This document shows, one piece after another, positions 24,230 through 43,928 of a stretch of 64,000 nucleotides of DNA. Every line of letters starts with the position of its first letter. The stretch's first letter is position 1. Position numbers and translations under genes: made by a program. The notes beneath the pieces were generated by a model that ran no database searches, had not been told where the DNA came from, and saw nothing but the letters and a program-made list of their open reading frames with translations. The DNA is from Alphaproteobacteria bacterium (lineage in GTDB: Bacteria; Pseudomonadota; Alphaproteobacteria; UBA828): contig JBFXKW010000002.1 in assembly GCA_050173345.1 (NCBI GenBank), positions 79,938 through 143,937 of the forward strand, read 5' to 3'.

Positions 24230-25048
24230 CTACTTCTTCGCGGCCCTGTAGGAGAGCGGTACCGCGGCCTCGGCGGCGAGCACCCGGAAGGTGAAGCTTT
24301 CCTGCAGATAGAGCCGCACCGTGGTCGCCGTGTGGTCGAGATAGCCGATCGAGAAATCCTGGCCGACCGTCAGCTCGAAATCGCCGCCGCGCAGCGACAT
24401 CACCACCGCGCCGTCGACGCCCGGCGCCCACACCACCGGCCCGTCGAGCAGGCGCTCGACATGGTCGAAGACGCGATAGCCGCCCGATGTCGTGGTCTCG
24501 GTCAGCCCGGTATAGCAGCGCGGCCCGAGCGCGATGCCGTAGGGGCCGGCGACGCCGTCATTGCGCAGCTTGCTGAGCGCCTCCGCGACCACGATGGGAT
24601 AGCGCGTATAGTCGTCGGTGAGGGTGAGGCCGGCCTTTTCGGCGGCCTCGCCGATCCCCTTTATGCCGGCGCCCGGGTGGCCATGAAAGACGGCGGCGTC
24701 CTCAGCGATGGCGATGGCGCGCGCCGCCGCGATCACCGGCTCCAGCTCGGCGTCCTTGCTGCCGCGCTCGATCGCCTCGAACTCGCTGCGCGGCAGTTCG
24801 AACGGAACGCGCAGCTCGACCAGCGGCTGAACACGCCGGAGGCGGCTCTCGATGCCCTCGCGCCAGGACGGCTTGACCGGCTCGGTCCGCCCGAGGCTGA
24901 CCGCGCAGGCATCCCAGCCCAGCGGGCCAACGAAATCGACGAGCTTGCGCGCGGCGAGCGTCAGCTTGAGCGTGCGCCGCGCCTCCTCGTCGATCTCCTT
25001 CCACGCGGCCGCGGAGATCGGCGCCAGTTCGCGAAGCAGGTTGTTCAT
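24230..25048 (-). CDS. enc: Family-1 encapsulin nanocompartment shell protein (linocin-M18/HK97-fold)
   Basis: The N-terminus 'MNNLLRELAPISAAAWKEIDEEARRTLKLTLAARKLVDFVGPLG' is the conserved family-1 encapsulin start. 272 aa. It lies 4 nt downstream of a cargo gene with a targeting peptide. Confidence 0.85.
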   Translation of the reverse strand: MNNLLRELAPISAAAWKEIDEEARRTLKLTLAARKLVDFVGPLGWDACAVSLGRTEPVKPSWREGIESRLRRVQPLVELRVPFELPRSEFEAIERGSKDAELEPVIAAARAIAIAEDAAVFHGHPGAGIKGIGEAAEKAGLTLTDDYTRYPIVVAEALSKLRNDGVAGPYGIALGPRCYTGLTETTTSGGYRVFDHVERLLDGPVVWAPGVDGAVVMSLRGGDFELTVGQDFSIGYLDHTATTVRLYLQESFTFRVLAAEAAVPLSYRAAKK

Positions 25049-25052
25049 GGCG

Positions 25053-25421
25053 TCACGCTCCCCTCAGGCTGCCGATGCCGAGCGAGCCGTCGCCCGCCTC
25101 GCCGCGGCCATCCCCTGTATCCGCTTCCTCGATCTCCAGGATGGCGCCTTCGGCGAACAGGTAGGTCTTGAGCATCTCGTTCAGCACCGGGTCGTGGCGG
25201 CGCAGCCATTCGAGGAGCATCGACGCGTGCTCCTTCTCCTCGTCACGGTTGTGCGCGAGGATGCCGCGCAATTCGGTATCGCCCGCGACGTCGACCCGCT
25301 GGTCGTACCAGTCGACGGCCTCGAGCTCCTCTCGAAGCGAGACGATCGCGCGGTGCCGGTCGAGCGTCTCGGGCCTGAGCTTGCCCCGCTCCTCGTGAAG
25401 TTGTTCGCTCGAATCAGTCAT
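25053..25421 (-). CDS. Encapsulated ferritin-like cargo protein (EncFtn/Flp) with a C-terminal encapsulin targeting peptide
   Basis: Start is the ATG at 25421 (MTDSSEQLHEERGK…), preceded by GGAGGGAGAG. The ferritin-like di-iron motif 'ILAHNRDEEKEHASMLLEWLRR' is closely similar to Rhodospirillum EncFtn. The C-terminal '…GDGSLGIGSLRGA' matches the GSLxIGSL cargo-loading peptide consensus. Confidence 0.8.
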   Translation of the reverse strand: MTDSSEQLHEERGKLRPETLDRHRAIVSLREELEAVDWYDQRVDVAGDTELRGILAHNRDEEKEHASMLLEWLRRHDPVLNEMLKTYLFAEGAILEIEEADTGDGRGEAGDGSLGIGSLRGA

Positions 25422-25605: not shown

Positions 25606-28600
25606 TCATGCCGGCTCGGCGTGCGGGGGGTCTCCGCCGTCGCCGACCATCACGGCCCGCCGGAGCGTGCCGGGTTGCCGCAGCAGCGCCTTGCGGGCCT
25701 CCCATTGCGACGCCGGGTCCAGCGTCTCCAGGTATTGCACCTCGCCGCCGGCCAGGACGGCCAATGGCAGGCCGTCGCGATAGAGCAGCCGGTTGCCGGC
25801 CAGGGTCGAGAGCTTCGCCGAGCCTGCGAGGATGCCGATCAGGTTGAGCGGATCGGCGCCGGAGAGCGAGACGAACTCGCCGGTCTCCGGCTTCCGCCTC
25901 GTCTCGCGCAGCCTGCCGATGGCTTCGGGCAGCGCGAACTGCTCGCCGGGGAAGCCCGCGACGAAGCGGCCGCCCCGGATTTCGCCGCGCGCCTCGAGCC
26001 GGCGATAGACCCGCAGCAGGTCGCGCCAGGGCGGCAGCCAATCCGCCTCGCGGCCGGTCAGGCGTCCGAACACGACGCCGTAGCGGCGCAGCAGCGTGCG
26101 CGCGATGTGCTCGACCGCGTTCGCCGCATCCTCGGCCGTGCCCGGCCGCGAGCGACGCGCCAGCGCCCAGCGCCCGGCATTCTCCATGTCGAACACGGCG
26201 GTGCGATGGCGCCGCCGCGCCCCGGCGAGCGGCCGGCGCCGCGCCGCCGGCACGAGCAGCGCGCGCAGGCCTGCGAAGCTGTCCGAATTGACGAGGCCGA
26301 GCGCGACCAGTTCCGCAAGCGCCTCCTCGACCTGCGTGCGCAGCAATCCCGTACCCTCGACCAGCTCGTCGAAGAACAGTGCGCCGCGCTCGCGCAGGCA
26401 TTGCATCACGGCCTGCGCGCGGACGCTCGGCCGCGCCGTTTCGTCGGCCGGTGCCGGCGGTCCCCAATGCCGTGCGTGACGCCGCGCCAGCAAGGCGATC
26501 GGCGTGGTGCGCACCGGCGAGACGCCGCGCTCGCCTTCGCCCGTCCGCGCTGCACGCGGGCGCAGCCGCGCCCACGAGATGCGCCCGGCAAGGCAGAGAT
26601 CGTCGAGCCAGGCCGGGTCGTAGCCAGCGAGGCGTGCCGGCAGGATTTCGCTCTCCCACGCTCCGGCCGGCGCCTCGAAGCCTTCGAGCTGCCCGACGAT
26701 CGCCTCGACCGCCTCCGGGCCTTCCATGCGCGCGTCCGCGGTCACGCGCTGCCAGCCGAGCAGGAAGCGCAGGAAGTCGCGCGCCGAGACCGGCTCGATC
26801 TCCGCGCGCAGCCGCTTGATCGTGTACTGGTGGATGCGCGCGAGCAGGCGGCGCTCGCACCATTCCTCGCCGGCGCCGAGCGGGCTGAACCGGCCGCGCA
26901 TGGCGAAGCCTTCGGCCTCGAGCGCGGCGAATGCCGAGGCGAGCTCGCGCGCCGCGATGCCGAGCGCTTCCGCGAGAGCGCCCTGCTCGACCGGCCCCTG
27001 GCCTTCGAGCCGGCCGCGCACGATCTCGACCAGCGCCTCGTCGCGCAGCCATTCCCGCGCATAGGCCTCGGGCGCGGCGATGTCCGGCTCGGCCGGTACA
27101 TCGGGCCACAGCGCGCGGAACTGCGGCAACCGTTCGGCCGCGACCCAGAGCGCCTTGCCCGGCGCGCCCAGCCGGGTGACGCGCTTGTCGCGCGCGAGCT
27201 GCGCCAGGAATTCGTTCCAGCCCGGCCCGGCCTCCGCCTCTTCCTCGTTCAAGGCGCCGAGCCAGACCAGCGCATCGTGCAGCTCGTCGGCGTTGCGCGC
27301 ATCGGGCCACGCCTCGGCGCGCACGCGCGTGATGGCCTCGGCATCGAGCCGGCCGAACTCGGCCGCGCTCTCGGGCCCGGCCCAGTGCCGGCTCATCACC
27401 GCCTGGGTGCGGCGCTCCTCGAGCGGCGCATCGTCGAGATAGGCATAGGGCCGGGCGGAGAGCACCTCGAGCGCGAGCGGCGAGGGCTGGGTCAGGTCGC
27501 GCGCCACCACCTCGATCTCGCCGGCCTCCAGCCGGGCGAGCAGCCGCTCCAGGCCCGCGACGTCCATCGCCTCGGTCAGGCAGTCGCCAATGGTCTGGTT
27601 GACCAGCGGGTGGTCCGGGATTTCGCGCTCGCCGACCAGGTTCTCGGCGCAGGCGAGCTGATCGGGGAACACGGTGGCGATCAGGTCTTCAGCCTCCATG
27701 CGCACGAATTGCGGCGGCACCTTCTTGCCGCCGCGGAAGCGCGGCAAGGCGAGCGCGACGCTCGCCACCCAGCGCCAGCGCGTCAGGAACATCGGCGCGT
27801 CCAAGAGCGCCTGGATCAGCACGTCTCTCGCGCTCGCCGCATGCAGATAGCCGCGCACCTCGGCGAGCTCGAAGCTGTGCGCCGCGGTGAGCGAGAGTAC
27901 GATGTTGTCCTCGGTCGCGGCCGCCTGAAGCTCGAAGTTGAAGCGCCGGCAGAACCGCTTGCGCAATGCCAGGCCCCAGGCCCGGTTGAGCCGGCTGCCA
28001 TAGGGCGAATGGATGACGAGCTGCATGCCGCCGGCCTCGTCGAAGAAGCGCTCGAACACCAGCCGCTCCTGCGTCGGCAGGCAGCCGAGCGCCGCCTTGG
28101 CCGCGGCGAGATAGTCGGCGAGCTCGCGCGCCGGGGTCTCCTCGATACCCAACTCCTCGACCAGCCAGCACACCGCGTCGTCGCCGTCCAGACGCGCGGC
28201 GACCTCGGCACGCAGGCGAGACACGGCGAGCGACAGCTCGTCGCTGCGGCCCGGCGCCTCGCCCAGCCAGAACGGGATGGTCGGCGCCAAGCCATTGGCG
28301 TCCTCGACGCGCACCGTGCCGCGGTCGACGCGCAGGATGCGATAGGCATGATTGCCGAGCAGGAAGACGTCGCCGGCCAGGCTCTCGACCGCGAAGTCCT
28401 CGTTCACCGTGCCGATGAACTGGCTCTCCGGCTCGAGCAGGACGCGATAGTCGGCGTTGTCGGGAATCGCACCGCCCGAGGTCAGCGCGGTCAGCCGCGC
28501 GCCGCGCCGGCCGCGCAGCACGTGATTGACCGCATCGTGATGGATCAGCGCGCCGCGCCGGCCGCGGCCGGTGGCGAAGCCCTCGCCGAGCATCCGGACG

Positions 28601-29976
28601 ATCGCGTCGAAGTCTTCGCGCGGCAGCGCGCGATAGGGCCAGGCGCGGCGGAGCAGCGCATAGAGATCGTCCTCGCGCCATTCCTGCGCCGCGACCTCGG
28701 CAACGATCTGCTGGGCCAGCACGTCGAGCGGCCGCGTCGGGATCGAGAGGCGATCAAGCTCGCCCTGCCTGACGCTGCCGATCAGCGCCGCGCACTCGAC
28801 CAGCTCGTCGCGCGAGAGCGGGAAGAGGCGCCCCTTGGGCGTGCCGCCGACCGCGTGGCCGGAGCGCCCGACCCGCTGCAGGAAACTCGCGATCGAGCGC
28901 GGCGAGCCAAGCTGGCAGACCAGCTCCACCTCGCCGATGTCGATGCCGAGCTCGAGCGACGCGGTCGCGACCAAGGCCCGCAACGCGCCGCGCTTGAGGC
29001 GCTGCTCGGCGTCCAGCCGGTGCTCCTTGGCGAGGCTGCCATGATGGGCGGCGACCTGCGCGGCATCCAGCCGCTGCGACAGGTGATGCGCCACCCGCTC
29101 GGCCATGCGCCGCGTGTTGACGAAGATCAGCGTGGTGCGGTGCGCCTCGATGAGCTGCGCGAGGCGGTCATAGGTCTGCTCCCAGACGTCGTTCGACATC
29201 ACCGCTTCGAGCGGCGCGGGCGGGATTTCGAGGGCGAGGTCGCGCGCCCGCTGATGGCCGGTGTCGACGATCCTGCAAGCGCCGGCCGCCTCGCCGGCTG
29301 GCCCGGCGCCGGTCAGGAAGCGGGCGACCTCCTCGATCGGCTTCTGCGTCGCGGAGAGCCCGATGCGCTGCAGCGGGCGGCCGCAGAGCGCCTCCAGCCG
29401 TTCGAGCGACAGCGCGAGATGCGCCCCGCGCTTGTTGGGCGCGAGGGCGTGGATCTCGTCGACGATCACGCTCCGCGTGGTGTGCAGCATGGCGCGGCCG
29501 GATTCCGAGCCGAGCAGGATATAGAGCGATTCTGGCGTGGTCACCACGATGTGCGGCGGCCGGCGCAGCGCCCGAACACGGTCACCCGCCGGCGTGTCGC
29601 CGGTGCGTACCCAGGTGCGGATTTCGACGTCGGGCTGACCTTGCGCGCGCAGCGCATCGCGGATGCCGGCGAGCGGCGCCTCCAGATTGCGCTGGATGTC
29701 GTTCGACAGCGCCTTCAGGGGCGAGACGTAGACGACCCGCGTCTCGTCGGGCAAGTCGCCCACGAGGCCGTGCCGGGCCAGCTCGTCGAGCGCGGCGAGG
29801 AAGGCGGCGAGCGTCTTGCCCGAGCCGGTCGGCGCCGCGATCAGCACGTTCTCGCGCGCGCGGATCGCCGGCCAGGCCTGCGCCTGCGCCGCGGTCGGCG
29901 CCGCGAAGCGGCCTTCGAACCAGGCGGCGACCGCCGGATGGAACAGCGTCTTCAGGTCGAGGGCGGTGGCGTCCAT
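25606..29976 (-). CDS. lhr: Lhr-family ATP-dependent DNA helicase (large helicase-related protein, 1456 aa)
   Basis: Walker A 'APTGSGKT', DEIH box, SAT, and the Lhr-core WH/beta-barrel/C-terminal extension. The size matches Lhr. The entire antisense strand also forms a 1478-aa ORF, which is a GC artefact. Confidence 0.9.
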
Positions 29977-32604: not shown

Positions 32605-33091
32605 CTCGCAGTCTCCCTCCCGCCGGCATGCCCGGCCCCACGCCACGGCACCACCCGACGCCTGAACGGACACGGTAGGGCAGCGGCGAGGACGGGGTCA
32701 ATCGCGGCGGGAGGGGCGAAATTCGAGGCAAGCGCGAGGCAGGCGGGCGACATGCGGCAATAGTCGCCTGCATTCACGCCTGATCGACCGCACGACCACC
32801 CCGCGGACCGATAAGATGGCGCTCGCGCTCAAGGGATGCCGCCACAACTGCGCGGCGGCTGGCAAATCGCAAGGCCGCTAGCATCGCCTATTGACGAGCC
32901 CCGCGTTCAATGGTCCACAGCCGGATGATCGTGGAGACCGGGCGCACATGTATAAAATATAAGCACGGCTTTTATCATTGTTTTTCCAACATAATCTATT
33001 CGAATCGCACGAATTCCTGAGAACGCAACAAAATACTCATACCCTGAACGCCTCGCGTGCGCTTTGCTCGCGAGTATTCGGGAGATCCACC

Positions 33092-34237
33092 ATGACAACT
33101 CAGCAGCACGTTTCCATTCCCAACGATGTGCGCACCTGGGCCAACGACGGTTCCCCCATTCCGGATTGGGTACGAACGCACATAGTGGACAAGATGACGC
33201 CCAACGGTACTTTCCTCCTCTCAACGCCTATTGGGACCGCCAGGGTTCATCTCGGCAATATCGTGATTGAGCATTGTGGCGAACTATGGTCCCGAACACC
33301 CGATGAGGTTTCCAAACTCATTGAAGGACTCCAAGCGGAAACCACGCCGGCCGCAGCCGCGATCGGACCGGGCAAATCAGCCCAGTTCGGAACCAGAAGT
33401 AAGTCGGGGAAAGGCAAGAAGCGCGGCACCCAACGCAAAATGGCTTTCCGCCTACCCATCGGCTCCATGCCGAGCATCGAATGGGTGCATACCTCGGAGC
33501 TTGTCGTCGACCAATCCTACCAACGCTCTATCGACAACGAAGGATCGCGCCGGCTGATAGCTAGCATCGCAGCCAACTTCGATTGGCGGCTCTGCGCGCC
33601 GCTCGTCGTCTCGCGGCGTGCAGATGGCTTGAAAGTCATCATCGATGGGCAGCATCGCTGGGCAGCAGCTGTTCGCCGAGGTGATCTACCTCAGCTGCCC
33701 TGCTGTCTCTTCACCTATGCCAGCCCGGAGGATGAGGCGCGTATGTTCATTGTCGCCAACAGGGCGCGCAAACCGATGAACCGCTTGGATGACTTTCATG
33801 CTGCGCTTGCCGCAGCGGACGAGGATGCATTGGAGATCCTGCGCCTGGTGACCGAGGCTGGGCTGACGATCGCGCGGCATACATCCTTCACGGCATGGAA
33901 GCCGGGAGAGGTGGCCTTCACGTCGTCCATCGCGACCGCGCTCCGTCGGCATGAAGACGCGGTGGTATCAGCGGCGCTGACATGCATGGCCGAGGCATTC
34001 GAGGGGCAATCCCTGACCCATGGCGCATCAGTGTTCGGAGCCTTGATCAAAATCTTCGCCAATCCACCCGAGGGTTTCGACCCCGACAGGCTCGTGCCGG
34101 TGCTGCGCCGCTTCGACATGGCGAGCTTAGCCAAAATCGTTCGAGATCAAAGAGGCGTGGATGCTCGGGTAAGCACCGTATTCACGGCCATAGTAGAAGC
34201 GTTGGCCAACCTCGATGATGATTCCCCGATGGCATGA
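33092..34237 (+). CDS. ParB/Srx-fold DGQHR-motif protein (ParB-like nuclease domain) of unknown function, island-encoded
   Basis: ATG at 33092 after GGAGA. The central domain 'LVVDQSYQRSID…LIASIAANFDWRLCAPLVVSRRADGLKVIIDGQHRWAAA' carries the ParB/DndB-type DGQHR signature. It is flanked by unrelated N- and C-terminal regions. GC content of the gene and its flanks is clearly below the window average. Confidence 0.55.
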   Translation: MTTQQHVSIPNDVRTWANDGSPIPDWVRTHIVDKMTPNGTFLLSTPIGTARVHLGNIVIEHCGELWSRTPDEVSKLIEGLQAETTPAAAAIGPGKSAQFGTRSKSGKGKKRGTQRKMAFRLPIGSMPSIEWVHTSELVVDQSYQRSIDNEGSRRLIASIAANFDWRLCAPLVVSRRADGLKVIIDGQHRWAAAVRRGDLPQLPCCLFTYASPEDEARMFIVANRARKPMNRLDDFHAALAAADEDALEILRLVTEAGLTIARHTSFTAWKPGEVAFTSSIATALRRHEDAVVSAALTCMAEAFEGQSLTHGASVFGALIKIFANPPEGFDPDRLVPVLRRFDMASLAKIVRDQRGVDARVSTVFTAIVEALANLDDDSPMA

Positions 34238-34246
34238 GGGGAGGAG

Positions 34247-34280
34247 GTGCCGTGTTCGGGGTTGTCCGGAACACGGCACC
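34247..34280 (+). terminator. Candidate intrinsic terminator after the ParB-like gene
   Basis: Perfect 14-bp stem ggtgccgtgttcgg / ccggaacacggcacc with a 6-nt loop, 10 nt after the stop. It is followed by tatcgtttca. Confidence 0.45.
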
Positions 34281-34403
34281 TATCGTTTCACCAGAACGAT
34301 CATCTACGCTGGACGCCGCCGCAATGTCTCTCTCCGGACAGGACAAGGAGGTAGAAGGCGGGCCGTAGACGATAGTGATGATCACTACGCTTTCGCTGTG
34401 GTC

Positions 34404-34829
34404 CTATCTTGAAGCCGAAGTTCCGTTCGGGGCGATCAAAGAGAGCTTGGGGAAATAGGTCCGATAACGCGCCGCATCCCTCGTCAATAGCGAATATCCG
34501 GCTACAGCCGCGTGGGCGCCTATGAAGAAGTCCGGAAGCGGCAAACTCTTTGTTCCGCTTCGCTGCCGATAGGCGAGGAACGCCTTGCCAGCGAGAAAGG
34601 CCGCTTCGTACGGGATGGACTCACGATCGAACATGGTTTTCGGGAGCGCGGCATCGAGATCTTCGATGCGTGAATATCGAATCGACACCTCAGCATAGAT
34701 GACCGGATTGATGACGAGGCGGTACCGATCGGCGGCGCGCTTGAGGGCCTCCGCGGACCACGCAAGCCAACGCGCGTCTTCCGTCATGACGTCAAGAAGA
34801 ACATTAGCGTCAACCAGGACGGCTGTCAT
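34404..34829 (-). CDS. vapC: PIN-domain ribonuclease toxin VapC
   Basis: 'MTAVLVDANVLLDV' with the first acidic PIN residue. 141 aa. Its start abuts the stop of the upstream antitoxin gene. Confidence 0.8.
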   Translation of the reverse strand: MTAVLVDANVLLDVMTEDARWLAWSAEALKRAADRYRLVINPVIYAEVSIRYSRIEDLDAALPKTMFDRESIPYEAAFLAGKAFLAYRQRSGTKSLPLPDFFIGAHAAVAGYSLLTRDAARYRTYFPKLSLIAPNGTSASR

Positions 34830-35060
34830 TCAGTCATCGCGGGTCAGCGCCATTATGGCATCGGTGCTCATCGACACGTCGCCGCGGCCCCGCAGATGGG
34901 CAACGAAACGAGCGCCGCGACCGCCCTTGCCGGCCTTGGCACGAACGATACGCACAACCTTGCCGTCGAACTCGAACTCCACCTCGGTATGGGGCAACAG
35001 GCCCGCCCGTTCACGGATATCGACTGGGATAGTCACCTGCCCCTTCGACGTAATGCGCAT
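34830..35060 (-). CDS. vapB: AbrB/SpoVT-type antitoxin VapB
   Basis: 76 aa. 'ITSKGQVTIPVDIRERAGL' swapped-hairpin AbrB motif. The stop is adjacent to the vapC start. Confidence 0.7.
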   Translation of the reverse strand: MRITSKGQVTIPVDIRERAGLLPHTEVEFEFDGKVVRIVRAKAGKGGRGARFVAHLRGRGDVSMSTDAIMALTRDD

Positions 35061-35227
35061 GAGTCGTCTCCTTACTCTTACATGTAAGAGTAAGGAGATT
35101 TGTGCCGAATTTCAAGCCGCCCATCGACGCCGGGACAAGACCGTCGCGGCCTCTCGATCACAGCAGCACGGTTGATAGCAATCCGGGGAGGGGCAGTGGC
35201 GCAGCATGGAGCGCCATGGCGCAAATT

Positions 35228-35317
35228 TGGCGGAGGGGGCGGGATTCGAACCCGCGATACGTGTTACCGTATGCACGCTTTCCAAGCGTGTGCCTTAAGC
35301 CACTCGGCCACCCCTCC
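35228..35317 (-). tRNA. tRNA-Ser (anticodon GGA), 90 nt with a long variable arm
   Basis: The reverse complement reads GGAGGGGTGGCCGAGTGGCTTAAGGCACACGCTTGGAAAGCGTG…GGTTCGAATCCCGCCCCCTCCGCCA. It has a 7-bp acceptor stem, D-arm GCCGAGTGG…AAGGC, anticodon loop TTGGAAA, T-arm GGTTCGAATCC and an encoded CCA. Confidence 0.85.
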
Positions 35318-35420
35318 TGCCGTGCCGCAGGGCCGGCAGGGCGGACAATAGCAAGAATGGGGAAGCCTGCAACACGCGCCGGCCGCCGGCAGCGGGCCGG
35401 TTTGCTTCCATGATTCGATA

Positions 35421-35440
35421 AGGCAATTGTATACTTGACT
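35421..35440. repeat. Left terminal inverted repeat of the IS1595-family element
   Basis: aggcaattgtatacttgact. Its exact reverse complement is at 37645-37664. Confidence 0.75.
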
Positions 35441-35493
35441 ACACAACATGCCCGAACCATCTGAAACCCGACAGGCCGGCGAAGAGGTTACGA

Positions 35494-36129
35494 TTACTCC
35501 GAGGATGACGGACGCGGGGATTGCTGCCTTGCAGCTTTTTTCCGGGTCGGCTTCTGACGTTTTGGTTGGTGCGGTTTATAGCGCCATGAGGCATGCAGAA
35601 GGTGGGCGAATGTCCTCACGGTATCTGCATGAGCCCGCGCCGAGAAGTCGCCGTGATTTATCAAAAGATACGCCATGATCTTGCGCAGATCGGCGGTCAT
35701 ATCATTTAGAAGGGTAGGCGATACTGGAATTTCTTTGCGGTGTTTGTCCGTGAGGGCGACCAAAAAATTGGAGCTAATTCGTTCGTCAATCTTGTCGGGG
35801 ACTGGGTCCGCTCCGTAATGCAAGATCTGATTGCGCACATCGTTGATGTGCCCGAGCTGTGTTAGCACCGCATCGGTTTCCTTCCTGCGCTCTTGGTCGG
35901 TCTCGGATATCAGCATCAAGCGACGCAGCAAGCCATTTGCGGTATCCACGCGAGCGCCCGAGAGAAGAGCGCGCGCGACAGGGAGGGTAAGCTTCGCCAC
36001 GCTGGAAACTGCTATGAATAGAGCGCCTTCGACGGATGAGAAGGCATCTACAAATTCACCGAGGGATTCATGATACCTTCGAGTTTGCTCTTGTTCGCCG
36101 AGCATGCCGTGAGGCCCATAGTTAGCCAT
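35494..36129 (-). CDS. Hypothetical protein, passenger gene inside the IS element
   Basis: A 254-aa track ORF. The probable start is the internal ATG at 36129 (MANYGPHGMLGEQEQ…). GC is low and there are no recognisable motifs. The basic C-terminal tail (KPHQPKRQKPTRKKAARQQ) reads into the IR. Confidence 0.4.
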   Translation of the reverse strand: MANYGPHGMLGEQEQTRRYHESLGEFVDAFSSVEGALFIAVSSVAKLTLPVARALLSGARVDTANGLLRRLMLISETDQERRKETDAVLTQLGHINDVRNQILHYGADPVPDKIDERISSNFLVALTDKHRKEIPVSPTLLNDMTADLRKIMAYLLINHGDFSARAHADTVRTFAHLLHASWRYKPHQPKRQKPTRKKAARQQSPRPSSSE

Positions 36130-36672
36130 GGCTAAGCCCTCCGATCCGACCAAAGACCCGAAGTTCCGCGAGACGGTGGAGCGGATGCTACGCGCGCCAC
36201 CGAAACCGCATAAACCTACATCAAGCAAGATGTCTGACAGAAAGAAAAAGCCGCCCAAGAAGGAGGGCGGCTAGGAGGAAAGATGGACGAGCGAGAGTTG
36301 CGCCTTGAATGTTTGCGTCTTGCCGCTGTAGGTGGCGGCGATTATGCGAAGGTGCTCGACGTGGCGGGTCGGTACGCCAATTTCGTTGAAGGGTCAGGCG
36401 TTCCGAACGGTTTGGAGACAGTCGCGGTACAAGCCGATGAGGTAGCGCCTGTCAACTAGTTCTTCCCCGCCATCTTTGGCGATGAGGGGGTTGGCGGTTT
36501 TCGCTTCGGCTTGCATGATTGTTTGCATCAGACGCCATGCAACCTGTTCGGGCGAATTCTTGCCGAGATGTACAATGGGTCTGTCAGCCATTAGGGTTCT
36601 CCCTAGCCATCGGGTTGCTTGCTATAAAGGCGGCTCAGGATCATCCGCCATTCTTGGCGTGTGAGTCGAGGC

Positions 36673-37599
36673 TTAGACGTTCGGCCCGAGATCAGCCCGC
36701 CGATAGGTGAGGCGCTTCCCTTCGATGCCCTTGAGCGCCTTGACGGCGCGCTCGCTGTCATCGACGCCAAGGGCAGCGCGTTCGCTGTAGCGGAAATCGA
36801 ACTCCGCCAGATAGCGGTGAAGATGCTGCTCACCGCAGTGCTGGTAGACGCCCTTCATGCCGCGCTTGAAGATGCTGAAATAGCCTTCGATGGTGTTGGT
36901 ATGGATCGGGCCGCGCCCGTACTCGCCGGCCATGTGGCGCACGACGCCATGCTCGACGAACTCGCGCCCGACCTTCGTGTAGTGGCGCGCCTCATCGGTC
37001 ATCAACCGCGCTTCGCGGGCCACGTTCTCGCGCACGATAGGGGCGACGGTGGAGGTTCTCAGGTCATTCACGACCATCGAGCGCGCGCGGCCGGTCTTGC
37101 GGTCAACGAGCGACAGCACCTTGTGCTTGTGCTCGTAACCATGTCGCACAGGCTTGCCCTTCTTGCGGCCTATGAAGGTCTCGTCCGCCTCCACCGTGCC
37201 GCCATCGCTGCCGAAGGGCGACAGGTCATCAGAGCGCATGCCCTCGCGGATGCGATGCGCCATGAACCAGGCTGTCTTGTAGGTCACGCCGAGCATGCGG
37301 TGGAGCTGATGGGCTGACATGCCCTTCTTGCTCGACACCATCAAATGGGTTGCCAGAAGCCACTTATGGAGCGGCACATGGGAACGCTCGTACAGCGTGC
37401 CGACGCGCACGGTGAACTTCTTGCGGCACTCGCGGCAGTGATACCAGCCCGCGCCCATCGCGCCTTCGGCCGGCAGGGCACGCACGGTCTCAAGCTGGCC
37501 GCAGAACGGGCAGAACGGACCATCCGGCCAGCGCACGCTTTCGAGGTATTCGCGGGCCGTGGTTTCATCGGTGAAGATCGGGGCGGTGAGTTTCGGCAT
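36673..37599 (-). CDS. IS1595-family transposase (ISXO2-like DDE transposase with N-terminal zinc ribbon)
   Basis: N-terminal 'CPFCG…CRECRKKF' zinc ribbon, then the ISXO2-like DDE_Tnp_IS1595 core (…HTNTIEGYFSIFKRGMKGVYQHCGEQHLHRYLAEFDFRYSER…). Confidence 0.85.
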   Translation of the reverse strand: MPKLTAPIFTDETTAREYLESVRWPDGPFCPFCGQLETVRALPAEGAMGAGWYHCRECRKKFTVRVGTLYERSHVPLHKWLLATHLMVSSKKGMSAHQLHRMLGVTYKTAWFMAHRIREGMRSDDLSPFGSDGGTVEADETFIGRKKGKPVRHGYEHKHKVLSLVDRKTGRARSMVVNDLRTSTVAPIVRENVAREARLMTDEARHYTKVGREFVEHGVVRHMAGEYGRGPIHTNTIEGYFSIFKRGMKGVYQHCGEQHLHRYLAEFDFRYSERAALGVDDSERAVKALKGIEGKRLTYRRADLGPNV

Positions 37600-37644
37600 G
37601 GCTGATCACTCCTTGCCGCCCAAGGTAAGCGAAGATGGCTGTTC

Positions 37645-37664
37645 AGTCAAGTATACAATTGCCT
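37645..37664. repeat. Right terminal inverted repeat of the IS1595-family element
   Basis: agtcaagtatacaattgcct, the reverse complement of the left IR. It is followed by the duplicated TTCGATAA. Confidence 0.75.
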
Positions 37665-37815
37665 TCGATAAGCTCACGCTTCGACAGGCTCAGCATGAGG
37701 GCGTTGATTGCGGCCGCCGTCATTTCTGCCGAGGCAAGTGCGCGCGAACGAGCCACAATGCCGCGCGGTGCCGCCTCCGCATCGTCCATCGCGCCATTCC
37801 GCCGCCGGAGCGATC

Positions 37816-38454: not shown

Positions 38455-39057
38455 ATGGCAAGCCATCGGCACAGCGAGCCGCCATCCGATCCCGCGCTCA
38501 GGGTCAAGGCGCTCGAATCGCTGCTCATCGAAAAGAAGCTGATCGACGCGGCCGCGATGGACGCGCTGATCGATACCTTCGAACAGAAGGTCGGCCCACG
38601 CAACGGCGCCAAGGTGGTGGCGCGCGCCTGGGCCGACCCGGCCTACAAGCAGCGCCTGCTCGCGGATGCGACCGCCGCGATCGCCGAGCTCGGCTATTCC
38701 GGCATGCAGGGCGAGGACATGGTGGTGGTCGAGAACACGCCCAAGGTCCACAACCTGCTCGTCTGCACGCTGTGCTCCTGCTATCCGTGGCCCGTGCTCG
38801 GCCTGCCGCCGGTCTGGTACAAGGCGGCGCCCTACCGCTCGCGCGCCGTGATCGAGCCGCGCGCGGTGCTCGAGGAGTTCGGCGTCAAGCTCGCCGACGA
38901 CGTCGAGATCCGCATCTGGGATTCGACCGCGGAGCTCCGCTACATGGTGCTGCCCGAGCGGCCCGCCGGCACCGAGTCTTTGAGCGAGGACAAGCTCGCC
39001 GCGCTGGTCACCCGCGACGCCATGATCGGCGTCGCCAAGGTCGCGCCGCCGCGCTGA
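38455..39057 (+). CDS. nthA: Nitrile hydratase alpha subunit, cobalt type
   Basis: Metal-binding claw '[10 protein letters not shown]'. Threonine and tyrosine in V-C-T-L-C-S-C-Y mark the Co-type; Fe-type enzymes have VCSLCSCT. 200 aa. Confidence 0.9.
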
Positions 39058-39070
39058 ACGGGAGGGCGAG

Positions 39071-39382
39071 ATGAACGGCATCCACGATCTCGGCGGCATG
39101 CACGGCCACGGGCCGGTCAACGCGGAAGCCAACGAGCCGGTCTTCCACGGCGATTGGGAGAAGCGCGCCTTCGCGCTGATGATCTCCTGCTTCGCCGGCG
39201 GGCAATACAATGTGGACGAGTTCCGCCACGCCATCGAGCGGATGGACCCGGCCGAATATCTGCGTTCGAGCTATTACGAGCACTGGCTGCACGCGGTCGA
39301 GACGCTGCTGGTCGAGAAGGGCGTCATCAAGCAGAGCGAGCTCGCCGCCAAATGGGCGACCGTCGCCAAGGGAGGCGCCTGA
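39071..39382 (+). CDS. Nitrile hydratase beta subunit, N-terminal half (separate ORF)
   Basis: 'MNGIHDLGGMHGHGPVNAEANEPVFHGDWEKRAFAL…' is the canonical beta-subunit N-terminus. The ORF stops at TGA 39380-39382, after the sequence AAGGGAGGCGCC. Confidence 0.8.
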   Translation: MNGIHDLGGMHGHGPVNAEANEPVFHGDWEKRAFALMISCFAGGQYNVDEFRHAIERMDPAEYLRSSYYEHWLHAVETLLVEKGVIKQSELAAKWATVAKGGA

Positions 39383-39732
39383 TGCCCCTGCTCAGCAAGG
39401 ACATGGTGCCGACGCTCGTCGCCAATGGCGGCTCGACGCGCGTCAACGCCTCGGTCGCGCCCAAGTTCAAGAAGGGCGACAAGGTGCTGGCGCGCAACCT
39501 CAACCCGCCGGGCCATATCCGCCTGCCGCGCTACGCGCGAGGCAAGCGGGGCGAGGTGGTGGTCGATCACGGCGTCTTCGTGTTCCCGGATACCAACGCG
39601 CACGGCAAGGGCGAAAAGGCGCAGCACGTCTATACCGTGCGCTTCGCCGCGCGCGACGTGTTCGGCCCGGCGGCGGGCGCCAAGGACGCCGTCTACGCCG
39701 ACCTGTGGGACGACTATCTCGACCCGGCCTGA
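39382..39732 (+). CDS. Nitrile hydratase beta subunit, C-terminal half (separate, translationally coupled ORF)
   Basis: ATG overlaps the preceding TGA (TGATG), with AAGGGAGG 6 nt upstream. 'APKFKKGDKVLARNL…GEVVVDHGVFVFPDTNAHGKGEKAQHVYTVRFAARDVFGP' matches the beta C-terminal barrel. Confidence 0.8.
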   Translation: MPLLSKDMVPTLVANGGSTRVNASVAPKFKKGDKVLARNLNPPGHIRLPRYARGKRGEVVVDHGVFVFPDTNAHGKGEKAQHVYTVRFAARDVFGPAAGAKDAVYADLWDDYLDPA

Positions 39733-39748
39733 GCGGGAGCCCGCCCCC

Positions 39749-40156
39749 GTGGTCTCGCCCACCGCCCTCGATGAGACGCCCGGCCTGCCGCGCGACCGCG
39801 ACGGCCCGCTGTTCGCCGAGCCGTGGCAGGCGCAGGCCTTCGCGCTCACCGTGAAGCTGCACGAGGCTGGGCACTTCACCTGGCCCGAATGGGTGGCGTA
39901 TCTGAGCCGCGAGGTCGCGGCTGGCGCGCCGGCGGGTGCATCAGGCGCCGAAACCGTCTATTATCTGCAGTGGCTGGCCGCACTCGAGAAGCTGGCCTCC
40001 GACAAGGGATTGACCTCGCCCGCCGCGCTCGCCGCCCGCAAGGCCGAATGGCTGGCGGCCCACGGCGCGACGGCGTTCGGCGAGCCGGTTACGCTCGAAG
40101 CGGCGCACAGGCACGACCATGAGCATGACGGCAGGAAGCAAGGGGAACAAACATGA
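39749..40156 (+). CDS. Nitrile hydratase accessory/activator protein (beta-homolog, P14K-like)
   Basis: GTG at 39749. 'FAEPWQAQAFALTVKLHEAGHFTWPEWVAYL' is the beta-like motif typical of NHase metallochaperone/activator proteins. ~135 aa with a His-rich tail. Confidence 0.65.
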   Translation: MVSPTALDETPGLPRDRDGPLFAEPWQAQAFALTVKLHEAGHFTWPEWVAYLSREVAAGAPAGASGAETVYYLQWLAALEKLASDKGLTSPAALAARKAEWLAAHGATAFGEPVTLEAAHRHDHEHDGRKQGEQT

Positions 40157-40341
40157 CGGTGAAGAAGGCAGCGCGTGAGGGGCACGTTTCTGCGTGGGCG
40201 GCGTTCGTGCGGGCTTGGCCGGTGGCGATCGCCGTGATGCTGGGCGTCGGCCTCATCTATGGCGCGGGCTTCGCCGGCTCCGAGGTGCTGCACGATGCGG
40301 CGCATGACGCGCGCCACTCCTTCACCTTCCCCTGCCACTGA
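40153..40341 (+). CDS. cbtB: Cobalt transporter subunit CbtB
   Basis: 62 aa, one TM segment, then 'YGAGFAGSEVLHDAAHDARHSFTFPCH' His-rich tail characteristic of CbtB. It overlaps the preceding stop (ATGA). Confidence 0.75.
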   Translation: MTVKKAAREGHVSAWAAFVRAWPVAIAVMLGVGLIYGAGFAGSEVLHDAAHDARHSFTFPCH

Positions 40342-40359
40342 GCGCCGGGAGCCCCCGCC

Positions 40360-41208
40360 ATGATCGGACGTCCCGCCCCGAGCGGCAACGGCCACGACGC
40401 CGCCCTGGCTCGCCGCCCCGCCGCGATCGGCCTGGACCGGCTGCGCCAGATCGTTCTGGTCGCGCTGATCGCCGGCGTGCTCGCCGGCCTCGCGCTCACC
40501 GGCCTGCAGCGCATCGCCGTGGTGCCCATGATCCTCGAGGCCGAAACCTACGAGACCGCCGCCGGCGGCCATGAGCACGGCCATGACGATGCCGCGGCCG
40601 CCACAGGCGCGGACGCCCACCAGCATGACAGCGCCCAGGCGCACGAGCACGAGTCCGCCGCGGCGGCGCCAACGGACGCCGCCGACGAGGGCGACGCCAA
40701 TCGCTTCTGGCTGACGCTCGCCGCCAACCTGGTCTCCGCGGCCGGCTTCGGGCTGCTGCTCGCCGCCGGCATGAGCCTGCTCGCCGCCACCGGAAGGCGC
40801 ATCGACTGGCGCAAGGGGCTGCTCTGGGGCCTCGCCGGCTTCGGTGCCTTCCAGCTCGCGCCCGCGCTCGGCCTGCCGCCGGAACTCCCGGGCTCCGCCG
40901 CGGCCGAGCTCGGCGCGCGCCAGGGCTGGTGGCTGCTCACCGTGCTCCTGACCGGCATCGGCCTCGCCTGGGCCGCCTTCGCGCCGCGCTATTGGCTGCG
41001 GCCGCTCGCGGTGGTGCCGATCATCATCCCGCATCTGATCGGCGCGCCGCAGCCCGAGCACCATGGCGGCCTCGCGCCCGAATCGCTGGCGACCGGCTTC
41101 ATCTACGCCTCGCTGATCACCAATTTCGTGTTCTGGATCGGCCTCGGCGCCCTCGCCGGCTACGCCCACGCCTGGTTCGAGCGGCGCGGCGCGGCGGCGC
41201 GGGCCTGA
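40360..41208 (+). CDS. cbtA: Cobalt transporter subunit CbtA
   Basis: 282 aa, five TM segments. His-rich loops (HEHGHDD…HQHD…HEHE) and the conserved C-terminal CbtA core. Confidence 0.8.
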   Translation: MIGRPAPSGNGHDAALARRPAAIGLDRLRQIVLVALIAGVLAGLALTGLQRIAVVPMILEAETYETAAGGHEHGHDDAAAATGADAHQHDSAQAHEHESAAAAPTDAADEGDANRFWLTLAANLVSAAGFGLLLAAGMSLLAATGRRIDWRKGLLWGLAGFGAFQLAPALGLPPELPGSAAAELGARQGWWLLTVLLTGIGLAWAAFAPRYWLRPLAVVPIIIPHLIGAPQPEHHGGLAPESLATGFIYASLITNFVFWIGLGALAGYAHAWFERRGAAARA

Positions 41209-43510: not shown

Positions 43511-43735
43511 TCAAAGCTGCTCGAATTCCTCCGTGGAGAGCCCCGCTTGTCGGAGAATGCTTCGGAGCGTGCCCGTAGAGACCTCTCGATGTGCCGGAAC
43601 GATCGCCGTGCGAACGACCGCACCTTCTGTCTTTACAAATTTCACATGGCTACCTTTTCGACTGGCCTCGGCAAAGCCAGCCGCCATGAGCTTCCGCCTG
43701 ACCTCGCGATAGGCAAGTGGTCTAAGAGGTGCCAA
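43511..43735 (-). CDS. hicA: HicA-family mRNA interferase toxin
   Basis: 74 aa. 'KGSHVKF' motif and dsRBD-like fold signature of HicA. It overlaps the hicB stop by 14 nt. Confidence 0.7.
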   Translation of the reverse strand: MAPLRPLAYREVRRKLMAAGFAEASRKGSHVKFVKTEGAVVRTAIVPAHREVSTGTLRSILRQAGLSTEEFEQL

Positions 43736-43928
43736 CCTCCACCTCGATCGGACGAATCGCGGGCAGGTCTGTTGCGCAAGGCGGCTCGAAGTGCAAGGTC
43801 AACGCTTCCTTCAGATTGTCCAGTGCCTCGGCCTCGGTCTCTCCTTGGCTTGCGACATCAACCTCCAGGCATTGCGCGACATACCATTCGCCCTCATGGG
43901 TGAGGCTTGCCGAAAATGTCCGTGTCAT
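43722..43928 (-). CDS. hicB: HicB-family antitoxin
   Basis: Start at the internal ATG (MTRTFSASLTHEGEWYVAQCLEVDVASQGETEAEALDNLKEAL), the partial RNase-H-like fold of HicB. ~68 aa. Confidence 0.65.
   Translation of the reverse strand: MTRTFSASLTHEGEWYVAQCLEVDVASQGETEAEALDNLKEALTLHFEPPCATDLPAIRPIEVEVGTS

Follow-up and report, generated by a model that had tools for sequence, protein, structure and literature searches.

A low-GC islet at the 3' end of a tRNA-Ser gene in an alphaproteobacterium: probable remnant of an integrated element with vapBC and a DUF6551-family ParB-fold gene

Across the ParB fold, the P-motif takes the general form GxxR (10.1101/2025.10.10.680097). In the same study, two phage fusions of a ParB fold to DUF6551 bound cytidine triphosphate (CTP) or adenosine triphosphate (ATP) in vitro, an R-to-A mutant of GxxR served as the negative control, and anti-defence or phage-host roles were proposed for the orphan ParB-fold proteins of phages (bioRxiv 10.1101/2025.10.10.680097). 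DndB, which shares the ParB fold and spells the motif DGQHR, acts as a dimer and represses by binding to palindromes within the promoter of its own gene (PMC4507180). Here, we describe a 2.5-kb low-GC islet in a 64,000-nucleotide stretch of an alphaproteobacterial contig (JBFXKW010000002.1, positions 79,938 to 143,937; referred to below as the window), in which a gene for a 381-residue protein with the letters DGQHR lies beside a vapBC toxin-antitoxin pair and a tRNA-Ser(GGA) gene. An earlier note on this DNA had taken the islet for a decayed tRNA-associated island that encodes a DndB-type component. We consider it likely that positions 32727 to 35227 are the immobile remnant of an acquired, tRNA-integrated element that carries vapBC and an accessory gene for a putative nucleotide-gated DNA-binding protein, which belongs to the DUF6551 family and not to DndB. 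The parts of the islet and its borders are as follows.

32706-32726, forward strand: distal, degenerate attachment-site-like (att-like) direct repeat GGCGGGAGGGGCGAAATTCGA, identical to the 3' end of tRNA-Ser at 17 of 21 positions; left edge of the islet
32727-35227, no strand: low-GC islet of 2.5 kb, probably acquired horizontally, without integrase (GC content, recombinase searches)
32950-33051, forward strand: AT-rich noncoding sequence preceding the DUF6551 gene, presumed promoter region (inferred from sequence)
33052-33074, forward strand: conserved leader hairpin CTCGCGTGC-GCTTT-GCTCGCGAG (covariation in 24 leaders)
33092-34237, forward strand: gene for the 381-residue DUF6551-family protein (open reading frame call, Pfam DUF6551)
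34245-34281, forward strand: terminator-like hairpin with a 16-bp stem, 8 nucleotides after the stop codon (inverted repeat, 94% complementary)
34404-34829, reverse strand: vapC, PIN-domain toxin of 141 residues (Pfam PIN, 40.7 bits against a cut-off of 23.6)
34830-35060, reverse strand: vapB, antitoxin of the AbrB/MazE fold, 76 residues (Pfam MazE_antitoxin, 29.1 bits against 24.7; TIGR01439, 28.5 against 28.3)
35067-35098, no strand: perfect 32-bp palindrome, TCTCCTTACTCTTACA followed directly by TGTAAGAGTAAGGAGA, candidate operator (100% complementary, no spacer)
35229-35249: proximal att-like copy GGCGGAGGGGGCGGGATTCGA, the 3'-terminal 21 nucleotides of the tRNA gene (tRNA 3' end)
35228-35317, reverse strand: tRNA-Ser(GGA), presumed integration target (ARAGORN; Rfam tRNA, 59.9 bits)

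The GC content over 32727-35227 is 58.9%, compared with 69.3 ± 2.0% in 216 sliding 2.5-kb segments located outside 32727-37671, that is, more than 5 standard deviations under the local mean. The lowest of these outside segments has 64.5% GC, and the mean of the whole window is 68%. At third codon positions, the GC content (GC3) of the three islet genes is 65 to 74%, against 87 to 93% in the flanking aminotransferase and HD-GYP genes, a difference of 20 to 25 points. Composition is thus not uniform, and the sharp drop that had been reported from about 32.7 kb to the 3' end of the tRNA gene is borne out; the AT-rich string cited for it maps to 32950-32980. The extent of the low-GC tract had been described only in part, since it runs on past the 5' side of the tRNA gene to about 37.7 kb. 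This second block was overlooked, and its low GC content is due to a separate insertion of an IS1595-family element, which we describe further below.

ARAGORN and Rfam both placed the tRNA-Ser(GGA) gene at 35228-35317 on the reverse strand, and the islet therefore lies at its 3' side, as the earlier note had it. A comparison of all 70 21-mers of the tRNA gene with the two strands of the window yielded no more than two off-target matches with at most four mismatches, one of which is the copy at 32706-32726. This copy stands in direct orientation exactly at the drop in GC content, and it is the sole match with at most five mismatches to the 3'-terminal 21-mer in a search space of 128 kb. By our own post hoc estimate, which allows for about ten 21-mers at the terminus and a tolerance of 200 bp on either side of the boundary, approximately 1e-3 such matches would be expected by chance. 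The statement that no attachment-site direct repeat is visible was therefore mistaken, and because the repeat is degenerate (17/21), mobilization of the islet in trans is unlikely. No integrase was called within ±10 kb of the islet, and tblastn queries with the tyrosine integrase, serine recombinase and AlpA proteins of homologous loci returned nothing significant in the window, in agreement with the reported lack of an integrase. The decayed tRNA-associated island proposed earlier consequently keeps its core, foreign DNA at the 3' end of tRNA-Ser without an integrase, which is the best reading of the locus; what has to be amended is that a degenerate, att-like repeat does exist. We also noted a subthreshold Rfam match to sX4, a proteobacterial small RNA, at 35112-35329 on the reverse strand (52.5 bits against a gathering score of 70). 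It overlaps the tRNA-Ser gene and approximately 115 nucleotides downstream of it; the tRNA part probably accounts for the score, and the match was set aside.

The 381-residue open reading frame is present at 33092-34237 on the forward strand, and its DGQHR letters occupy residues 185 to 189 (nucleotides 33644 to 33658), as had been reported. All five residues, D185 to R189, are invariant in 46 homologues, and the box II P-motif GxxR is thus retained as G186-Q-H-R189. The protein passed the Pfam DUF6551 model (PF20188) with 46 bits against a gathering threshold of 26.8 (E value 6e-12), with residues 141 to 353 aligned to profile positions 4 to 211 of 242, and a precomputed match to this model accompanies nearly all of the homologues listed. 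PHROGs labels the same region a “ParB-like partition protein” (E value 2e-16), and NCBI lists an identical protein, from the metagenome-assembled genome of an alphaproteobacterium, as “DUF6551 family protein.” TIGR03187, the DGQHR model, gave 21.7 bits against a cut-off of 58.85 (E value 1.4e-4), matching 53 residues (179 to 231, on positions 97 to 154 of 276). The DndB-type assignment accordingly failed in profile searches, the outcome that had been set beforehand as deciding against it, and the DUF6551 model was passed in its place. DUF262 and ParBc (PF02195) gave no Pfam match to the protein at an E value of 0.01 or below, TIGR00180 and the PADLOC models did not match it, and searches of PDB sequences with the protein and with its family profile returned nothing.

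An AlphaFold2 model built from the 46 homologues (pLDDT, the predicted local distance difference test, 81) divides the protein into four parts: an N-terminal beta+alpha domain (residues ~10 to 84), a disordered basic linker rich in Lys and Arg (85 to 120), a ParB/sulfiredoxin (Srx) fold (~125 to 230) in which DGQHR forms the GxxR P-motif, and a helical C-terminal domain (232 to 376). The core domain is structurally similar to the ParB/sulfiredoxin (ParB-CTPase) fold, and the structural neighbours of the protein include KorB and PadC; some viral neighbours bear the automatic name “sulfur modification protein.” The N-terminal domain matched no known family or fold. Of the domain make-up proposed earlier, the ParB/Srx fold and an N-terminal domain unrelated to known families were recovered, while the C-terminal part cannot be called unrelated, as the DUF6551 model covers most of it. 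No gene for a Dnd or Dpt partner occurs within ±10 kb, as had been noted, and PADLOC found none; nor is there a ParA-like gene within this distance, and the ParA-binding motif LG(R/K)GL cannot be read in the 381-residue sequence. Among the proteins scanned, a single one, P0156 (452 residues), has the rare N-terminal domain without a DUF6551 region behind it, and shows instead a weak match to DUF3987, which is associated with P4-type primases/helicases (E value 8e-5, below the cut-off). This arrangement hints that the N-terminal domain could be an adaptor of DNA-handling proteins of mobile elements.

The gene is framed by conserved noncoding sequence on both sides. Similarity by blastn to the homologous locus L085 begins at 33024, and the leader is conserved with homologous loci from there on; no match to a sigma-70 consensus was found upstream of the DUF6551 gene, and its promoter is presumed from the AT-rich stretch. 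The leader hairpin ends 5 nucleotides before the Shine-Dalgarno sequence GGGAGA (33080-33085), and every close homologue has a stem-loop shortly upstream of its Shine-Dalgarno sequence, including those at the same position in L001, L002, L006, L011, L047, L085-L114 and L166. We named the structure by hand and then tested it with controls, using a MAFFT alignment of 24 homologous leaders that had not been fitted to the structure. In this alignment, 83% of the cells are paired, compared with 71.8% in column shuffles (0/500), seven of the nine pairs change on both sides, and covariation scored 0.336 against 0.165. When the partner was slid by one to three columns, pairing fell to 26 to 53%. The mean z-score of the minimum free energy (MFE) over 42 leaders is -1.8. 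Rfam had no match for the hairpin, and RNAalifold found no consensus structure on the leader alignment. The stem contains G-U pairs, which favours an RNA hairpin over a DNA operator, and the hairpin may be an mRNA-stability or regulatory element. Sequestration of the Shine-Dalgarno sequence by the leader was dropped as an explanation, as the predicted pairing probability of that sequence was 0.68 against 0.63 in dinucleotide shuffles.

Downstream of the gene, the hairpin at 34245-34281 of the window has an MFE of -34.5 kcal/mol (z-score -4.6), and 19 of 44 homologues have a z-score below -2 at the same place, with hairpin sequences that differ between them. These hairpins are consistent with a private terminator of a gene cassette. 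DNA similarity between loci is confined to the gene, approximately 70 nucleotides upstream and approximately 40 nucleotides downstream of it, and the conserved mobile unit, made up of leader, gene and terminator, is therefore a single-gene cassette. The GC content of the DUF6551 genes is 55 to 62% in hosts of 58 to 69% GC.

In total, 416 homologues were found. Full-length homologues with 55 to 85% identity occur in Rhizobium, Agrobacterium, Mesorhizobium, Methylobacterium, Methylorubrum, Hephaestia, Sphingopyxis and many metagenomes, and are also present in viral contigs of IMG/VR; the closest relatives of the 381-residue protein, with up to 85% identity, belong to distant alphaproteobacterial orders. 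Homologues lie in islands or prophages beside tRNA genes (Lys, Asn, Arg, Thr, Gln), guaA, or serine or tyrosine recombinases. In Rhizobium and Agrobacterium, where the gene marks an island edge, a large serine recombinase gene directly precedes it; in a metagenomic lineage, it is convergent with a tyrosine integrase by tRNA-Asn and has hipBA on its other side; in Sphingopyxis and relatives, it marks the tRNA-Lys or tRNA-Arg edge of prophage-like regions; and in Methylobacterium it lies between a Phd/PIN pair and an AlpA gene. A second integrase-less islet with a DUF6551 homologue lies between guaA and der (L006/L007, 6541-11013, and also L008 and L009) and encodes in addition a 450-residue, weakly AAA-like protein, a Phd/PIN pair and a TacA-like antitoxin. 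The combination of DUF6551 with toxin-antitoxin genes and without a recombinase thus recurs. Homologues in true phages do not have the N-terminal domain and are part of early operons: that of mycobacteriophage Ramsey is encoded three genes past the cro-like repressor gene, and that of Paracoccus phage Shpa is found among Erf, exonuclease and SSB genes.

We took a census of the neighbourhoods of 46 nonredundant homologous loci, with 208 neighbouring open reading frames. A tRNA gene lies within 3 kb at 6 of the 46 loci, including 5 of the 22 that are flanked on each side by 3 kb or more of sequence, whereas approximately two tRNA-adjacent loci would be expected from tRNA density by our own estimate; guaA is adjacent at five or six of the 46. 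Toxin-antitoxin families are the most recurrent neighbours (PhdYeFM at 5, PIN at 6, and also HipA, AbiE, HigB and TacA). Dnd, Dpt and Ssp families are absent from the recurrent families of this census, as is ParA. Separately, we observed defence-type cargo in DUF6551 islands (L001, 1713-5278; L010, 1-6064; L002, 12195-15866), namely, a Gabija-like pair of OLD-TOPRIM and UvrD genes and an AAA_15/21 ATPase gene by genes for very large unassigned proteins, together with Schlafen-like AlbA_2/HATPase, DUF6602 and SRAP genes in the same islands.

The second module of the islet, vapBC, is apparently an ordinary and intact type II toxin-antitoxin operon, as far as its sequence tells. The pair had been called correctly: it is intact at 34404-35060 on the reverse strand, and the two products passed the PIN and AbrB/MazE models. 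The acidic PIN residues D7, E47, D100 and D118 can be read from the VapC translation. Its score with the NCBIfam VapC equivalog is low (17.5 bits against a cut-off of 80), and it is therefore a divergent VapC member. The stop codon of vapB abuts the start codon of vapC (TGAATG). Directly upstream of vapB, the perfect 32-bp palindrome overlaps the ribosome-binding region of this gene. Type II antitoxins of the AbrB/MazE fold bind operators of their own modules, and by analogy the palindrome is likely the autoregulatory operator of vapBC. Two independent short-read contigs from the same population, L004 and L005, both stop at 35096, within the palindrome, which suggests either an assembly break there or heterogeneity of the population beyond it, for example in presence or absence of the insertion sequence.

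Neither VapB nor VapC of the window had a tblastn match in any of approximately 120 homologous loci, and the PIN protein encoded beside the L006 homologue is only 28% identical to the VapC described here. A linked unit of DUF6551 and vapBC was rejected, as this vapBC occurs beside no other DUF6551 homologue; the association with toxin-antitoxin genes is thus generic and not a conserved operon.

Together, these results point to the following history and mode of action. A horizontally acquired element would have integrated at the 3' end of tRNA-Ser(GGA), and its remnant would now be bounded by the tRNA 3' end on one side and by the degenerate 21-bp copy (17/21) on the other. With no recombinase left, it would be a decayed island or prophage remnant that is unable to move. 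Two independent modules would make up the remnant, the vapBC operon and the DUF6551 single-gene cassette, and by addiction logic vapBC probably disfavours loss of the segment. By analogy with the phage DUF6551 fusions, the DUF6551 protein may bind CTP or ATP, and the nucleotide would gate dimerization and DNA binding, as in ParB, KorB and DndB. The protein would then act on mobile-element or incoming DNA, in regulation or exclusion but not in phosphorothioation, and is most likely a nucleotide-gated DNA-binding switch. The data presented above directly show what the parts are, where they begin and end, which fold and family the protein belongs to and how its homologues are distributed; for nucleoside triphosphate (NTP) binding, DNA binding and the biological role of the protein we infer from relatives.

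Several observations weigh against this interpretation. No empty site was found: a contig scan with the flanking aminotransferase gave relatives at 37 to 69% identity only, none of the 21 closest of these (60 to 69%) has a tRNA-Ser gene nearby, and look-ups of exact protein matches yielded no contigs other than those with 100% identity to the window, from other assemblies of the same population. Other tRNA-adjacent homologous islands showed no intact att repeats within the flanks examined, but because these islands extend past the flanks, this result carries no weight either way. The att-like repeat of the islet is short, degenerate and was noticed post hoc, and the value of ~1e-3 depends on the boundary tolerance chosen. 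Recombinases are adjacent in a minority of the homologous loci, so that the island edge is a tendency and not a rule. As no homologue of this vapBC stands beside other DUF6551 genes, the two modules may have arrived separately. Finally, ParBc gave no match at the threshold used, so that membership in the ParB group comes from fold and PHROG evidence.

The low GC content might instead belong to native AT-rich intergenic or tRNA-flanking DNA with fast-evolving genes, as the lack of an empty site and the often odd composition of tRNA flanks would allow. This is the least probable of the explanations considered, given a GC content more than 5 standard deviations below the local mean, the gap in GC3 to the neighbouring genes, protein relatives in distant orders at up to 85% identity and an att-like repeat at the compositional boundary. 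Scarcely more probable is that the protein is an orphaned DndB-type (DGQHR) part of a system for DNA modification or defence whose Dnd and Dpt partners were lost. The literal DGQHR, the weak local TIGR03187 match over residues 179 to 231, the viral structural neighbours with sulfur-modification names and the precedent of DndB itself as a ParB-fold repressor with this motif (PMC4507180) speak for it. They are outweighed by the score of 21.7 bits against 58.85 without any DndB equivalog or PADLOC match, by the absence of Dnd, Dpt and Ssp genes from the recurrent neighbours, and by the match to DUF6551 instead, with GxxR (here G-Q-H-R) general to the ParB fold. The DndB-type reading is thus close to refuted.

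What the DUF6551 protein does is the question on which the remaining alternatives differ. It could be a self-sufficient conflict factor for superinfection exclusion, defence or anti-defence, in which an NTP-gated ParB fold clamps or marks incoming DNA, and selection would retain it even once the carrier island has decayed. We regard this as unlikely, albeit the least unlikely of the alternatives. The autonomous unit of promoter, leader, open reading frame and terminator moves between unrelated islands and prophages with no conserved partner, its neighbourhoods are rich in Gabija-like OLD/UvrD, HipBA, AbiE, JetD, Schlafen-like ATPase and toxin-antitoxin genes, and the gene is intact, with all family-invariant residues, in the integrase-less islets here and in L006/L007; the survey of ParB folds, moreover, proposed anti-defence or phage-host roles for phage orphans. 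However, PADLOC had no match, no effector domain such as a nuclease is recognizable, and homologues in true phages are shorter and belong to early lytic operons, together with genes for replication and recombination, not to typical moron positions; the closeness to defence genes consists of raw neighbourhood counts. Slightly less probable is that the protein served the original element in maintenance or regulation, as a repressor like KorB or as a partition-type factor for the excised circle, and is now a functionless relic still short of decay. KorB and PadC among the structural neighbours, recombinases or AlpA adjoining the gene at several loci, a cro-like gene near it in Ramsey, and the precedents of DndB and KorB as palindrome-binding ParB-fold repressors would fit such a factor. 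Its homologues accompany unrelated serine and tyrosine recombinases at varied target sites, though, which argues against co-evolution with one integration system; ParA is missing within 10 kb here and from the recurrent neighbour families; two islets without an integrase still contain the gene in fully intact form; and the G-U pairs of the leader stem favour RNA over a DNA operator. At a similarly low level of confidence, we put forward a bolder proposal, that the N-terminal domain/DUF6551 protein and its leader hairpin form a single-gene, nucleotide-gated module of conflict between elements, which hops as a self-contained cassette among alphaproteobacterial islands and prophages and is kept by selection even where, as here, the remnant has no integrase. 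A remnant of an acquired element with two independent modules is the interpretation that we retain.

On the other side of the tRNA gene, the low-GC tract consists of the following features.

35422-37663, reverse strand: IS1595-family element of 2242 bp, a separate insertion (DDE_Tnp_IS1595, E value 1.7e-33; NF033547, 198 bits)
35494-36258 and 36394-36591: passenger open reading frames of the element (254/211 residues and 65 residues, respectively)
36673-37599: IS1595 transposase

The element has near-perfect terminal inverted repeats of 19 to 26 nucleotides, a perfect 8-bp target duplication, TTCGATAA, at 35414-35421 and 37664-37671, and a GC content of 58.6%. Its passenger open reading frames have no match in Pfam, NCBIfam, PHROGs or PADLOC. 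It is inserted 97 bp upstream of the 5' end of tRNA-Ser, and the insertion may affect the tRNA promoter. Elsewhere in the window, the annotation of an identical contig lists an encapsulin gene (Linocin_M18) with an EncFtn cargo gene at ~24230-25421 (reverse strand), a 1456-residue Lhr-type helicase at 25606-29976 (reverse), a nitrile hydratase cluster with CbtA/CbtB cobalt transport genes at 38455-41208 (forward), and a HicA/DUF7387 toxin-antitoxin pair at 43511-43928 (reverse).

For annotation, DUF6551 replaces a tempting but wrong label of DndB-like defence, and the boundaries of the tRNA-Ser islet and of the IS1595 element are now fixed. Orphan proteins of mobile elements with the ParB-CTPase fold are a recently recognized class without assigned biology. 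Strong conservation across orders, the private N-terminal domain, the single-gene cassette and the covarying leader hairpin provide experimental handles, as do homologues in culturable strains of Rhizobium, Agrobacterium, Methylobacterium and Sphingopyxis, among them Rhizobium sp. SYY.PMSO, Agrobacterium sp. OT33 and Methylobacterium sp. J-090. If the protein were a stand-alone exclusion or defence factor, it would represent a new mechanism class on the ParB fold; were it no more than a relic regulator, the locus would be ordinary. The architecture with the N-terminal domain, the covarying leader hairpin and the cassette-like mobility appear to be new, as no description of them was found in the literature searched.

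Compared with known systems, the protein shares with DndB (TIGR03187, TIGR03233) the superfold and the DGQHR spelling of the P-motif. In contrast to DndB, it failed the family model, has no dndCDE, dptFGH or ssp genes within ±10 kb and none recurrently beside its homologues, and carries other flanking domains. Because model score and genomic linkage both speak against it, the protein is not a DndB family member, yet it may work in a broadly DndB- or KorB-like way. From KorB, PadC and canonical ParB it differs in having no ParA or KorA partner, no recognizable parS or OB site, no match to Pfam ParBc or TIGR00180, and another C-terminal domain. Like decayed tRNA islands of the kind of cis-mobilizable elements (CIME-like), the islet combines a tRNA 3' end, foreign composition, a candidate copy of the tRNA end and a toxin-antitoxin module; unlike them, it measures only 2.5 kb and its repeat is degenerate (17/21). 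Its vapBC pair resembles VapBC systems in the PIN toxin with four acidic residues, the upstream AbrB-fold antitoxin, the abutting genes and the palindromic putative operator. The 381-residue protein, in turn, resembles the Pfam DUF6551 orphans of phages and mobile elements, passing their gathering threshold and joining a ParB/Srx fold with GxxR to a following helical domain. Each part of the locus thus falls into a known category, the islet among tRNA-associated island remnants, its toxin-antitoxin pair among VapBC modules and the 381-residue protein among DUF6551 orphans with the ParB fold.

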